Made by a program: the position numbers and the translations under genes. Positions 49,937 to 54,129 of a DNA stretch of 64,000 bases are shown here, in pieces. The number at the start of each line of letters is the position of its first letter. The stretch's first letter is position 1. A model generated the notes under the pieces. It ran no database searches, had not been told where the DNA came from, and saw only the letters and a list, made by a program, of their open reading frames with translations. Source of the DNA: Escherichia coli (GTDB taxonomy: Bacteria; Pseudomonadota; Gammaproteobacteria; Enterobacterales; Enterobacteriaceae); the NCBI RefSeq assembly GCF_003334815.1, contig NZ_QOWO01000016.1; one strand, 5' to 3'.

Positions 49937-50491
49937 ATGCTTATTGGCTATGTACGTGTGTCAACAAATGACCAGAACACAGATCTACAACGTAATGCGC
50001 TGAACTGTGCAGGATGCGAGCTGATTTTTGAAGACAAGATAAGCGGTACAAAGTCCGAAAGGCCGGGACTGAAAAAACTGCTCAGGACATTATCGGCAGG
50101 TGACACTCTGGTTGTCTGGAAGCTGGATCGGCTGGGGCGTAGTATGCGGCATCTGGTCATTCTGGTTGAGGAGTTGCGCGAACGTGGCGTTAATTTTCGC
50201 AGCCTGACGGATGCTATTGATACCAGCACACCGATGGGGCGTTTTTTCTTTCATGTGATGGGTGCCCTGGCTGAAATGGAACGAGAACTGATTGTTGAAC
50301 GAACAAAAGCTGGACTGGAAGCTGCTCGCGCACAGGGACGAATTGGGGGACGTCGTCCCAAACTTACACCAGAACAATGGGCGCAGGCCGGGCGATTAAT
50401 TGCATCAGGCGTTCCTCGCCAGAAGGTGGCGATCATCTATGATGTTGGTGTATCGACACTGTATAAGAAGTTTCCGGTCGGAGATAAATGA
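49937..50491 (+). CDS. Serine DNA invertase (Pin/Gin/Hin/Cin family)
   Basis: About 184 aa from MLIGYVRVSTNDQ; catalytic serine context; C-terminal HTH; very close to e14 Pin as recalled. Confidence 0.85.
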   Translation: MLIGYVRVSTNDQNTDLQRNALNCAGCELIFEDKISGTKSERPGLKKLLRTLSAGDTLVVWKLDRLGRSMRHLVILVEELRERGVNFRSLTDAIDTSTPMGRFFFHVMGALAEMERELIVERTKAGLEAARAQGRIGGRRPKLTPEQWAQAGRLIASGVPRQKVAIIYDVGVSTLYKKFPVGDK

Positions 50492-50849
50492 AACCGCAGG
50501 CTCGTCGTATGCAAGAAAGTGCTGCGGCTGGCTGGTTAACTTCCGATAGTGAGAGTATTGAATGATTTCCAGTCGTTATCGATTTTACGTATTTTTTGCA
50601 TGAGATGATTTGAACGCCCTAGCACCAACCGTTCATGATTGCACGCCACTGTCTCTAGAACTGCTATGAGCATGAAGCCGCTGTTCAAACTAAGAATTTA
50701 TATGGCACTAACAGAAAAAATGTTACATATATGTTGAGCTTTAACGCAACATAGACATGTTCTATAGTTTGTGTCTCACCACCAGTTGAAAAAAAACGAA
50801 AATAGATTAACAATGTTCAGAAGAAACCTTCATAATAGAAGAGGTATAA

Positions 50850-51104
50850 ATGGGTAAGATTATTCGGTGGATGCTTTTTTTTGTCGGATTATTTTCCGTT
50901 GCATATTCAATATATAAATATCAACAATCTCCGCAGAGTTTATTTTACATAATCGGTGCTATAGGAACACTTTTATCTGCTACATGTGGTTTACTTGAGA
51001 TAAAAAGCAAGAAATCGAATGGCAGTATAACTGCTGGCGACAACTCAAATATCGTTGTCATTAATGGTTCAGAAAACACATCAAAAATAAAAAATAGAGG
51101 GTGA
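50850..51104 (+). CDS. Small two-pass membrane protein of unknown function (first gene of AT-rich cargo operon)
   Basis: 84 aa; two hydrophobic helices, then a GDNSNIVVINGSENT tail; GAGGT before ATG; stop overlaps the next start (ATGA). Confidence 0.5.
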   Translation: MGKIIRWMLFFVGLFSVAYSIYKYQQSPQSLFYIIGAIGTLLSATCGLLEIKSKKSNGSITAGDNSNIVVINGSENTSKIKNRG

Positions 51105-52042
51105 TTATGTTTGATAAAGAGGTTAACTTAGGAGACAACTCAAACGTAGTAAAAACAGAAGGGAATAACAACACAACAATAATAAATAATTTTGATGAGA
51201 AGTTTATAGGTCACGTTGTAAGATCCATGCTTTATGAAAGTATGCCTTCCTTTCAAGAAGAAGCTAGAAAAAAGATAATTGCGTCAACTGATGAATACAT
51301 TAGAGAGCTAATATCTGAGTTAGTAATTCAAAAAACAGATGCAGATACATTAAACCAAAAACTATCAACGCCTGACGTTCAATACTCTCTTTTTGAATCA
51401 GCTAAATGTTTTGCAAAAAATCCAGAAAGAACAGCAAAATCAACTCTGTTAAATTTAGTTGTAAAAAAAATAAATGAATTGGATGGAGATCATGAAGAGC
51501 TTTCCTCTATCGATCTGGCAATAAACGTCGCTACAAAACTTAGCGTAAAGCAAATAAGGTATATATCTTTAATATACTATATTAAAGATATTGTAAAAAT
51601 ATCACAAGATAGTGCCGGCGCTTATTGCATAATAGATCCTTCAAAAGATACAACAGAAGAAGTTGACGATTTCTTTTTATTCCCAAATGATATAAAAAGG
51701 AACAAGCAGGATGTTTATGATCTTTATATCGATCTATATAACAATCAAATGGATGTTGTATTTAAAGATGAAGAGATTGGCCCAGTTGATTATAGTATGC
51801 TTATAGCATTGGGTTGTATCATTCAACCTGCATTCCCTCAGCGAACATTTGTACAAAATGTAAAGAAAAGAACAGGATTAGATTTAAACGACAGCGAACA
51901 AAAATTAAAGCTATCGACATTCATTGAGAAAATAGAAAAAGCTATAGAGATAGATTCTGTCGATTATATAGTATTAACTACGGTTGGTAGACAAATAGCT
52001 AACGCCTATATATCAACAAGAATGAGATTAGTTAACTTATAA
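51101..52042 (+). CDS. Unknown 313 aa protein (second gene of AT-rich cargo operon; candidate defence/exclusion effector)
   Basis: Translationally coupled to the upstream small gene; N-terminus repeats the GDNSNVV...NNN motif; very AT-rich; no motif I recognise. Confidence 0.5.
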   Translation: MIMFDKEVNLGDNSNVVKTEGNNNTTIINNFDEKFIGHVVRSMLYESMPSFQEEARKKIIASTDEYIRELISELVIQKTDADTLNQKLSTPDVQYSLFESAKCFAKNPERTAKSTLLNLVVKKINELDGDHEELSSIDLAINVATKLSVKQIRYISLIYYIKDIVKISQDSAGAYCIIDPSKDTTEEVDDFFLFPNDIKRNKQDVYDLYIDLYNNQMDVVFKDEEIGPVDYSMLIALGCIIQPAFPQRTFVQNVKKRTGLDLNDSEQKLKLSTFIEKIEKAIEIDSVDYIVLTTVGRQIANAYISTRMRLVNL

Positions 52043-52104
52043 ATATCTCATATTTCTTCATCCAAGGTGGTGGCTTCATCATCCACCGCCTTCTTTTCTG
52101 CTCT

Positions 52105-52215
52105 TAAGAGTAGTGAACAAACCACTCGTCAGCAAACTCCCAAGTATCTTTCAGAGTCTCCTGAACAAAAGCCTTAGCAGAATCCTTATCTGCGGTGTAC
52201 GTAACAGGAAAATCA
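52105..52215 (-). pseudogene. DinI-like 3' fragment
   Basis: Minus-strand translation ...[30 protein letters not shown] matches the DinI C-terminus; no N-terminal part or start. Confidence 0.45.
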
Positions 52216-52445
52216 TCGCTATGGTAGCTTTGACGCTCACCCCCATACCATAAAATATCAAGAGATTACGACTCATTTCCCCATGACTCTTCACCAACCA
52301 ACAGTTCTATCAACATAAGATGTAAACTCATAAACTAAGCAAGATAAAAAAATTAACAGAATTTTGTTGATTTCATGTCTGTGGAGTGTTAACTTAAAAT
52401 GAGACCTGAAGTACTGAAGGTCTTTGACACACTGGAGAAGCAACT

Positions 52446-52805
52446 ATGTTAACGCCGTTTGGTAAGACAGTAAGAAAAATGCGCATAGACTTGGGGCTTA
52501 CGCTTAAAAGCATGGCTGAGGCTATGGGCATGACCTCGTCTTATCTTTCAGCGATCGAAACTGGTAAAAGGGCGGTCACTAAGCCCGTGCTTGATAGCAT
52601 CATTAGCTATTTTAATGCGGATGAAAAACAAAAAGAAAAGCTTATCAGTGCAGCTCGTGACTCTCAGCAGTCAGTAGAGATCAGCTTGTCAGGTAAGAAT
52701 GGCCACGCTCGTGAAGTCGCAATTGCGTTCGCTCGTAGTTTTGATGAATTAAATGAAGAAGACTTCCGTAATTTACGACAGATTTTGAATCGAAAACAGC
52801 AGTAG
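52446..52805 (+). CDS. XRE-family HTH regulator
   Basis: 119 aa with N-terminal HTH (LTLKSMAEAMGMTSSYLSAIETGKR); directly upstream of and coupled to the ImmA-like gene. Confidence 0.65.
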   Translation: MLTPFGKTVRKMRIDLGLTLKSMAEAMGMTSSYLSAIETGKRAVTKPVLDSIISYFNADEKQKEKLISAARDSQQSVEISLSGKNGHAREVAIAFARSFDELNEEDFRNLRQILNRKQQ

Positions 52806-52813
52806 GAGGCGGC

Positions 52814-53335
52814 TTGAGCGGACAAGATTATCGTGTACCTCCGCAGAATCGTGAATCAATACGTTCTATCGTCACATCTCTGCGGAGCGCATTTGGTATT
52901 ACTGGGCTTAAATTCCCTGTAATGGAGGTAATTGAGTTCGCATTGCCTCAGTTGATCCCGGATTTTGAGTTCCACATTGGTGGCATGAAAGAAATGGGAG
53001 AAACGCATGGTCTTACGTACCCACAGGAACATTTATTGATTCTGCGCGAAGACATTTACGAAGGCGCTTTGAATGGGGTAGGGCGAGATAGGATGACTGC
53101 CGCGCATGAATTGGGTCATCTTCTTATGCACAGGAACATCGCATTTGCTCGTTCTGCCCCAGGGGTAAAAATCCGCCCTTTTGAGAGTAGTGAATGGCAA
53201 GCTAAATGTTTTAGTGGTGAGTTATTAGTGCCGGCTATGCATGTCAGTATTTTAAAAGGTATGACGGCTGAGGATGTTGCTAAGGCATGCGGAGTTTCAT
53301 TAGTGGCAGCGCGTTATCAGCTAGACAGAATGTAA
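52814..53335 (+). CDS. ImmA/IrrE-family zinc metallopeptidase
   Basis: 173 aa with HEXXH motif (AAHELGHLLMH); TTG start with AGGAGG 5 nt upstream. Confidence 0.7.
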   Translation: MSGQDYRVPPQNRESIRSIVTSLRSAFGITGLKFPVMEVIEFALPQLIPDFEFHIGGMKEMGETHGLTYPQEHLLILREDIYEGALNGVGRDRMTAAHELGHLLMHRNIAFARSAPGVKIRPFESSEWQAKCFSGELLVPAMHVSILKGMTAEDVAKACGVSLVAARYQLDRM

Positions 53336-53338
53336 AAA

Positions 53339-53374
53339 CCCCTTGCTTGGCGCCAACCAGTGCAAGGGGCTTTA
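53339..53374 (+). terminator. Putative terminator after the HTH-ImmA operon
   Basis: Hairpin CCCCTTGC...GCAAGGGG followed by a short T-run. Confidence 0.4.
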
Positions 53375-53488
53375 GGTGATGAATCCAAGAGGCATCACCA
53401 CCGTGAACAGCTTCGATAGACAGCCTGAAATTAACACCTTCAGGGAAGATGTTCAAGGGAAAAATCTCTCTTGGTAAGGAGGTGTTTT

Positions 53489-53592
53489 ATGAATGGGTTT
53501 GAAATCAATTGCTTCAAAAGCGGCGCCCAAAGGGTTCCGTTGGGTTTTCTGCCGTTACCGCAAGGTGCGTGGGAAATCAAAAAAAGTCCTTG
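53489..53592 (+). CDS. Candidate small ORF (34 aa) with strong SD
   Basis: TAAGGAGGTG 7 nt before ATG; encodes MNGFEINCFKSGAQRVPLGFLPLPQGAWEIKKSP; followed by a strong terminator. Below the ORF-track cutoff; speculative. Confidence 0.25.
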
Positions 53593-53654
53593 ATGCTCAT
53601 GATTACGGGTACGAGGCGTGGGCATTTTTAGTGCGCTGCTAAGGGTTAGTATTT

Positions 53655-53679
53655 AAGGCACCTGCGGGTGCCTTTTTTG
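53655..53679 (+). terminator. Intrinsic terminator
   Basis: AGGCACC-tgcg-GGTGCCT stem followed by TTTTTT. Confidence 0.6.
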
Positions 53680-53880
53680 TATCCTCTGACCCGATTGGTG
53701 TCTTGCTGAGCCTGATAACTACCAATTTTTGTTATTACTATTCTACTATCGCTCAATCATGATTGGCGGGAGTTGAAACCGCAGGCACGTCGTATGCAAG
53801 AACGTGCTGCGGCTGGCTGGTGAACTTCCGATAGTGCGAGTATTGAATGATTTCCAGCCGTTACAGATTTTACGTGCTAA

Positions 53881-54129
53881 TTAGTGAACAAACCACTCGT
53901 CAGCAGACTCCCAGGTATCTTTCAGAGTTTCCTGAACAAAAGTTTTAGCTGAATCTTTATCGGCGGTGCGCGTAACAGAAAGGCCATCGTTGCTGGTGGC
54001 TTTTACGATCACCTCTACATCGTCATAACGCTTACTGATGCGTCGAGTTAATTCTTCCTTTAACGCATCCACAGCACCGTTTGGCATTTTAGTCATTTTC
54101 TCTTTAGCTATGCAGATCTCAATACGCAT
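53881..54129 (-). CDS. dinI: DinI-like protein (RecA coprotease modulator)
   Basis: 82 aa; [11 protein letters not shown] ... [17 protein letters not shown] resembles DinI over its whole length. Confidence 0.75.

Follow-up and report, generated by a model that had tools for sequence, protein, structure and literature searches.

The right end of the prophage in a 64-kb stretch of Escherichia coli DNA (contig NZ_QOWO01000016.1, referred to as the window) carries accessory genes between the DNA invertase gene pin and dinI. This hotspot was probably built by out-of-register fusion of phage ends and by homologous exchange. The array comprises pin (49937..50491, + strand), a first copy (A) of a 102-nt repeat termed SP (50489..50590), an 80-nt continuation of this copy termed 'ext' (50591..50671, delimited by comparison with lambda), the cargo 1 cassette (50674..52108, +), a dinI pseudogene fragment, dinI' (52104..52241, -), the cargo 2 region (52242..53696, +, with a cassette core at 52276-53677), a 'pre-SP' segment (53697..53773), a second SP copy (B) at the native site immediately 3' of dinI (53774..53880) and intact dinI (53881..54129, -).

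Two repeats are located by a repeat search and by blastn of the window against itself. The first is SP, 102 nt long (50489-50590 and 53774-53875, 93% identity, E ~1e-39); the second comprises 132 nt of dinI' and of the 3' part of dinI (52111-52241 and 53882-54013, 85% identity, E ~2e-37). Neither search finds further copies of either repeat elsewhere in the window. Copy A of SP begins at the stop codon of pin (TGA, 50489-50491) and copy B ends 5 nt short of the dinI stop codon. An earlier sequence-only reading of the window had pointed out that the sequence 3' of the invertase stop recurs in diverged form before dinI, as is the case. It also placed a diverged 3' fragment of dinI between the two cargos, which is present but longer than the 52105-52215 reported: repeat search and translation extend it over 52104-52241. 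It holds the last ~44 codons of a diverged dinI allele, keeps the reading frame of the DinI C-terminus and lacks a start codon. In strain 510016 the Prokaryotic Genome Annotation Pipeline (PGAP) labels the same fragment an 'incomplete DinI-like' protein. The order given by that reading, i.e. invertase, repeat, cargo 1, dinI fragment, cargo 2, repeat and dinI, holds, with the exception that attR is not adjacent to dinI but ~270 nt beyond it, within the 5' end of prfC.

Where relatives lack cargo, SP constitutes the entire native spacer that separates the converging pin and dinI. Such empty junctions, with only a spacer of ~104 nt, are present in strain 104 and in ~14 loci from IMG/VR, and phage SKA5 possesses the same gene order with an annotated gap of ~143 nt. 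At least nine content states occur among pin-bearing relatives (loci designated by L and H numbers). Cargo 1 is found alone in E600003, DUF4145 in L007 and others, an SDH Clp-fold protease that truncates pin in L006, PD-T4-3 followed by cargo 2 in L053, Septu PtuAB with PDC-S15 in L031 and L051, DUF262 in H169, and a GIY-YIG protein with an ECs1072-family protein in H150. In L078 (3050-5963) dinI itself is interrupted, split at codon ~63 by a 2.6-kb insertion with three open reading frames (ORFs) of 440, 202 and 115 amino acids (aa). In a different prophage at prfC, the dinI'-cargo 2 unit comes after a DRT UG17 reverse transcriptase and a SLATT protein, and in lambdoid phages lacking pin the site is occupied by other genes, among them one for an IpaH-like effector of the type III secretion system (T3SS). 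The sequence-only reading had proposed to compare the content of relatives; the contents differ, and its interpretation of the junction as a hotspot with differing payloads is supported.

The IMG/VR loci were chosen by an exact 29-nt SP core motif, which is present in at least 120 contigs. Among the matches listed, dinI is the right neighbour of SP in 73 of 120 loci, while the left neighbours belong to 44 ORF clusters. SP marks the right edge of the variable region in most phages; cargo to the right of SP, i.e. cargo 1 of the window and ea31/ea59 of lambda, is the less common layout. The pre-SP segment is common to phages with other cargo to the left of SP, and eight loci (L007, L028, L047, L054, L056, L083, L114 and L115) align from window position 53697 onward. 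Since most phages have their cargo left of SP, 'tail-fibre module to SP' is a more fitting name for the hotspot than 'pin to dinI'. The proposal that the repeats are cassette boundaries at the pin-dinI junction is correct insofar as the cargo is variable there, but the 102-nt repeat is a widespread landmark and not a dedicated boundary.

SP is present in 199 sequenced phages, including many Shiga toxin (Stx) phages, HK97, phi80 and lambda. The lambda copy (24162-24256) is situated in the b region between ea47 and ea31, and SP copy A together with ext (50489-50671) corresponds to lambda 24162-24339 (J02459; L129 3163-3340) at 84% identity, a stretch without any annotated feature. SP with ext precedes the Septu cargo in L031 and L051 and follows the dinI'-cargo 2 unit in L053 and L004. 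In E. coli K-12, prophage Qin possesses a full SP copy (NC_000913.3 1632469-1632568; L132 4470-4569) between its left end and ynfT/ydfK/pinQ, Rac retains the hairpin part only (L131 8729-8769), and sequence comparison finds no SP in e14, which is rejected as a homologous junction for this reason. No non-coding RNA is annotated at the SP sites of Qin and Rac. Locus L020 contains two SP-dinI units (1984 and 6067), separated by IS1 and a tail-fibre/tfa/acetyltransferase block, with a near-match to the 21-bp site attB-in-PP_1, discussed below, 561 nt after the first SP motif; this arrangement is possibly a remnant of nested or tandem prophages.

By sequence comparison, the window reads as a composite of the left arrangement of E600003 and the right arrangement of 510016. 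Positions 49857-52241 (pin through cargo 1 into the start of dinI) are 99% identical to E600003, and positions 52111-55000 (dinI fragment, cargo 2, SP, dinI and prfC) are 99.4% identical to 510016. Among 5,426 complete genomes, none covers at least 80% of the whole array and none has the combination. Since the halves of the array occur apart elsewhere and together in none of these genomes, at least two events are needed, in agreement with the sequence-only reading. Four contexts (the window, L002, L004 and L053) share an identical dinI'-cargo 2 joint, which therefore arose once. The SP to the right of the dinI'-cargo 2 unit is followed by dinI in two of them; in the remaining two, where this SP copy looks hybrid, it runs on into the lambda-type ext. 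The differing continuations imply a crossover inside SP.

The two SP copies of the window belong to different subtypes, copy A being lambda-type with ext and copy B dinI-type, and dinI' and intact dinI are different alleles (85%), which excludes a recent local duplication. The same observations bear on the possibility that each cassette entered the pin-SP-dinI junction independently, by illegitimate recombination or cassette mobility, with the duplications arising by slippage or tandem duplication. Such insertions would fit the sharp cassette ends, the breakpoints, which recur precisely at the stop codons of pin and dinI and at the ends of SP, and the recurrence of both cassettes in unrelated elements, where cargo 1 is found in P4-like satellites and cargo 2 adjacent to an integrase in a different prophage. 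However, neither target-site duplications nor terminal inverted repeats are found at the cassette ends, the duplicated pieces are not of recent local origin and other genomes already contain either half of the array, and we regard this course of events as very improbable.

Fusion and homologous exchange would proceed as follows. SP, common to very many lambdoid and SfV-like phages, would provide a portable stretch of homology, and the cargos are self-contained 'moron' cassettes of foreign composition, each with its own genes and a predicted promoter and terminator. Rather than by single insertions of these cassettes between dedicated boundaries, the array would have arisen from right ends of different but related phages that fused out of register, either via tandem or nested prophages with subsequent internal deletion, or via unequal recombination between two phage genomes. 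One such fusion may have joined dinI, 132 nt from its 3' end, to DNA upstream of the cargo 2 of a second phage, which would have created the unit dinI'-cargo2-SP. A later homologous exchange in SP, dinI and the prfC end could then have placed this unit behind pin-SP-ext-cargo1.

Several points weigh against this course of events. In this family, no intermediate was recovered in which two complete prophages lie in tandem or nested, and fusion with deletion is a reconstruction. Over nearly its full length, the dinI of E600003 agrees with the intact allele of the window; E600003 could therefore represent a parent of a window-like array or have arisen from one by deletion, so that either order of events is conceivable. 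The selection of loci by an exact motif partly builds in the conservation of the SP core, frequencies among the 120 loci are not population estimates, and the ORF clusters of the catalogue derive from crude ORF calling. Promoters and terminators are predicted at consensus level, and the promoter scan is not enriched over shuffles.

Nakamura et al. 2021 (PMC8112680) describe a 96-bp site, attB-in-PP_2, that lambda-like prophages carry at their effector-locus end. According to that paper, the site is similar to the ykgJ/ecpE region, and lambda-like phages use it to enter prophages by integration; in one Stx2a phage it is placed 'between nleC and dinI'. The PPompW_699 homologue of SP (7273-7370) stops exactly 185 nt short of the 21-bp attB-in-PP_1 at 7555, matching a figure legend in PMC8112680, and K-12's ykgJ-ecpE intergenic region (NC_000913 304221-304337) carries SP at 88% identity over 117 nt. 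From several such independent concordances, and not from a published sequence, we infer that SP is attB-in-PP_2. The ykgJ-ecpE homologue consists of SP followed by a decayed 3' part of dinI with a 22-nt deletion (304221-304494; L133 2722-2995), with 78% identity to SP and dinI over 290 nt and z = 5.3 for the dinI part against shuffles. This suggests a decayed prophage end and not, as proposed in PMC8112680, the chromosomal source of attB-in-PP_2.

The correspondence with attB-in-PP_2 opens a further explanation of the array, namely that a guest phage with SP in its attP entered the resident SP by site-specific integration, so that the two SP copies represent attL and attR, and was then mostly deleted with its cargo left behind. 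Besides the identity of the site and the lambda-like phages reported there, the layout SP-dinI'-cargo2-preSP-SP-dinI is the expected leftover of a guest with SP-dinI, tail fibres, cargo and SP after internal deletion; a Campbell-type homologous crossover in SP-dinI, however, yields the same product, and the layout does not discriminate between them. No integrase, phage gene, attB-in-PP_1 or attB-in-PP_3 sequence is found between the SP copies, and copy A runs into the lambda-type ext and cargo 1 and not into an attL-int junction. Integrases next to SP in the catalogue were considered as a sign of an att site and rejected, as these enzymes, of the IntS, lambda or dusA types, belong to the phages themselves and have their own att sites (argW or attP) farther out. 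Since no guest phage remains and no integrase specific to SP was identified, entry by an integrase is rated lower than fusion and appears quite unlikely.

The ~65 nt of SP on the dinI side are nearly invariant in the motif-selected loci, with differences in the lambda and K-12 copies, while the ~35 nt on the pin side are variable yet always form a hairpin. In copy B the hairpin is intact (53778-53811, identified by repeat search and folding) and is followed by GGTTTCAA on the minus strand. In copy A it is degraded by two stem-breaking substitutions, with an energy of -7.5 kcal/mol against -14.8 kcal/mol in copy B and a fold z-score of 0.05 against -1.85; this copy no longer has a leftward gene upstream. 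RNAalifold missed the hairpin in the alignment of the whole SP owing to misaligned indels, and its conservation was scored by folding each sequence and by counting pairs in a hand-made register. In 46 distinct SP variants, 91.5% of the base-pair cells are paired, and two-sided changes occur at 6 of the 10 pairs (C-G to T-A, A-T to G-C and G-C to C-G). None of 1000 column shuffles (mean 392, maximum 404) reaches the 421 paired cells counted, a comparison that is not a probability since the sequences are related. The minus strand contains a U-rich tract, with a mean of 4.8 T within 8 nt after the stem.

Judged by these substitution patterns, the SP hairpin is under selection. Because its pairing is kept by compensatory changes and a U-tract follows on the minus strand, it is best read as a predicted intrinsic terminator for leftward att-proximal genes; the leftward gene facing SP is the SOS-regulated dinI in the window and the integrase in phages without dinI. 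A coding function of SP is rejected, as no conserved ORF spans it, substitution counts lack a clean codon periodicity and the variable part keeps its hairpin; the sequence-only reading, which allowed for a conserved coding sequence as a possible refutation of its cassette boundaries, stands in this respect. PGAP labels part of SP as an incomplete 'capsid protein' pseudogene (L007 4582-4668; L134 1376-1462, FRIK944), probably an annotation artefact spread from an ORF called through SP in some phage. SP was likewise rejected as a known RNA, with no Rfam 15 match at threshold in 7 kb or in 161 nt. The SP hairpin (53775-53811, +) displays a partial match to the last 36 positions of the Shigella small RNA CssrB (24.8 bits against a gathering score of 76), and a literature search on CssrB and on the SP sequence returned nothing relevant.

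Cargo 1 has a GC content of 32%, against 55% of the phage. It consists of a promoter-like site (50807-50836, a consensus-level prediction), a membrane ORF of 84 aa (50850-51104), an ORF of 311 aa of the LPO_1073/Vpar_1526 family (51107-52042; NF045477, 86 bits against a cut-off of 45; PF28206) and a predicted terminator hairpin (52064-52092) followed by CTTTTCT. The entire unit, including the small ORF, is found at 89.5% identity over 1438 nt in P4-like satellites of Atlantibacter and Citrobacter. One satellite copy (L135 4566-6003), next to a UvrD-helicase gene pair, has Psu, Ogr/Delta and a fragment of a Pox_D5 primase to one side and RhuM, HicB and SymE to the other. No repeats are present at the cassette ends in either of the two contexts. 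Cargo 1 has no match in PADLOC, and its protein has none in the Pfam-A library used.

Cargo 2 contains a CapH-like helix-turn-helix (HTH) protein (52446-52805; PADLOC capH 3.6e-10), a CapP-like ImmA/IrrE metallopeptidase of 173 aa with an HELGH motif (52814-53335; PADLOC capP 4.9e-11), a basic ORF of 49 aa (53493-53642; phrog_33859, 1.5e-26) and a predicted terminator (53655-53674) followed by a T-run. The 49-aa ORF is overlapped by a frame of 34 aa, which has the stronger Shine-Dalgarno sequence. A cassette adjoining the integrase in a different prophage (H14/L005) matches the core of cargo 2 at 89% identity. CapH and CapP reportedly regulate the anti-phage system CBASS and other defence operons, as ascribed to Lau and colleagues in 2022. 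The order of an XRE-type HTH gene followed by a gene for an ImmA/IrrE-type HExxH peptidase agrees with CapH/CapP, as with the ImmR/ImmA and DdrO/IrrE pairs. In contrast to CapH/CapP, no effector or defence operon is found next to cargo 2, whose sole companion is the 49-aa ORF downstream, with the dinI fragment upstream, and its matches in the defence library are of the regulator type only. The scores are modest; cargo 2 thus resembles CapH/CapP at the level of protein families and, because no effector operon adjoins, is not filed as a working member.

The prophage spans ~42 kb (12.47 to 54.41 kb) and is flanked by E. coli genes. Its tail and baseplate are of the type of the SfV/SfI/SfII group, with SKA5 as the closest sequenced phage, and it is an SfV/SfI/SfII-like temperate myovirus integrated into prfC. 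The insertion point is the 5' end of prfC, with the 14-nt core ATTATTTCTCACCC at attL (12473-12486) and attR (54397-54410). The phage brings a new promoter and the first 16 codons as a replacement N-terminus (54349..54410, +, terminating in the attR core, identified by sequence comparison), while the native first 21 codons are left at attL (displaced 5' end with attL core, 12422-12486). Intact dinI encodes 82 aa (phrog_189, 4e-31); two LexA boxes of the form CTGT-N8-ACAG are read from the sequence at 54145-54160 and 54173-54188, with a promoter-like site predicted at consensus level at 54194-54165. At the left prophage end, directly after the integrase, a gene for an AIPR/AbiU protein of 595 aa (14104-15891; PADLOC AbiU 3.9e-111) occupies a second cargo position, opposite to the hotspot.

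The left flank of the hotspot is formed by pin, a serine DNA invertase gene named 'pinE' by PGAP in relatives, whose product is 96% identical to the Pin of the IMG/VR loci. The last conserved late module to its left is the invertible tail-fibre segment (47964..49882), delimited by inverted Pin crossover sites at 47964-47989 and 49857-49882. The 3' end of tfa (48577-48766, +) has a sub-threshold Rfam resemblance to IS009 (48 bits against 117). A pattern search for Pin sites retrieves five matches against 0.83 expected, and the two good ones flank the opposed tail-fibre/tfa ORFs. Pin adjoins the hotspot, and DNA invertases are frequent in phage hotspots according to the iLund4u preprint, which would suit a capture or exchange of cassettes by Pin via secondary crossover sites. 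This is scarcely credible, however, as none of the cargo boundaries carries a good Pin site and the SP-anchored hotspot is also found in many phages without an invertase. With neither recombination sites nor target duplications at the cassette ends, there is no sign of an integron-like or Pin-mediated cassette system.

The locus belongs to known kinds, namely the lambda b region, exchangeable effector loci (EELs) with attB-in-PP_2, morons and prophage defence hotspots. The non-essential b region of lambda (ea47 / ea31-ea59, from the tail-fibre genes to attP) shares its homologous position, SP with ext, and cargo on both sides of SP, but contains other genes, and lambda cargo is transcribed leftward from pL whereas the window cassettes run rightward with predicted signals of their own. 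The concept of the EEL reportedly stems from Tobe and colleagues in 2006. Like EELs with attB-in-PP_2, the window possesses an element of ~96-100 nt between variable cargo and dinI near the att-proximal end, and in both the cargo would be gathered by joining prophage ends. Unlike in these, the host, integrated into prfC, is an SfV-like myovirus whose tail fibre is controlled by pin, the cargo is defence-like or regulatory instead of T3SS effectors, and neither a guest phage nor an integrase lies between the SP copies.

The pinE-mcrA end of e14 in K-12 likewise has accessory defence-type genes directly after a tail-fibre invertase at a prophage end, but its junction lacks both SP and dinI; in Mu, an accessory gene also directly follows the invertase at the prophage end (gin-mom). 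The moron concept is said to go back to Juhala and colleagues in 2000. With morons and defence hotspots the locus shares conserved flanks around exchangeable, autonomous cassettes that are low in GC, and Septu, PD-T4-3 and DRT UG17 occur in relatives of the window. Differences are the phage family and the flanks, and a boundary marked by a conserved non-coding element and not by genes alone. To the defence hotspots of P2 and P4 (Rousset et al. 2022, as cited in the iLund4u preprint) there is the additional link that the cargo 1 cassette itself is present in P4-like satellites.

New in the present analysis is the recognition of the repeat as a ubiquitous landmark with a predicted terminator, which ties separate descriptions together, as well as a defence-type version of the locus in SfV-like phages, with cargo 1 as a candidate cassette shared with P4-like satellites. 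A further-reaching proposal, which we consider rather unlikely, would regard SP as a selected, terminator-bearing RNA module of 3' ends and simultaneously as a docking site (attB-in-PP_2) that actively channels the stacking of cargo across lambdoid siphoviruses and SfV-like myoviruses, with the corollary that cargo 1 would be an undescribed anti-phage system. If true, the 'prophage-in-prophage' route of effector accumulation would extend to anti-phage defence genes.

The known systems at SP comprise Septu, PD-T4-3, DRT UG17, T3SS effectors and the ea genes of lambda. Because these share the spot, the cargo 1 pair, DUF4145 and the SDH protease are reasonable candidates for defence or fitness functions. 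The window itself shows ordinary phage mosaicism, here traced in unusual detail. SP links three descriptions that have been treated separately, i.e. the lambda b region, the effector loci of enterohaemorrhagic E. coli with their intra-prophage attB, and prophage defence hotspots, and as a landmark it provides a sequence-anchored handle for mining the accessory genes of diverse temperate coliphages.

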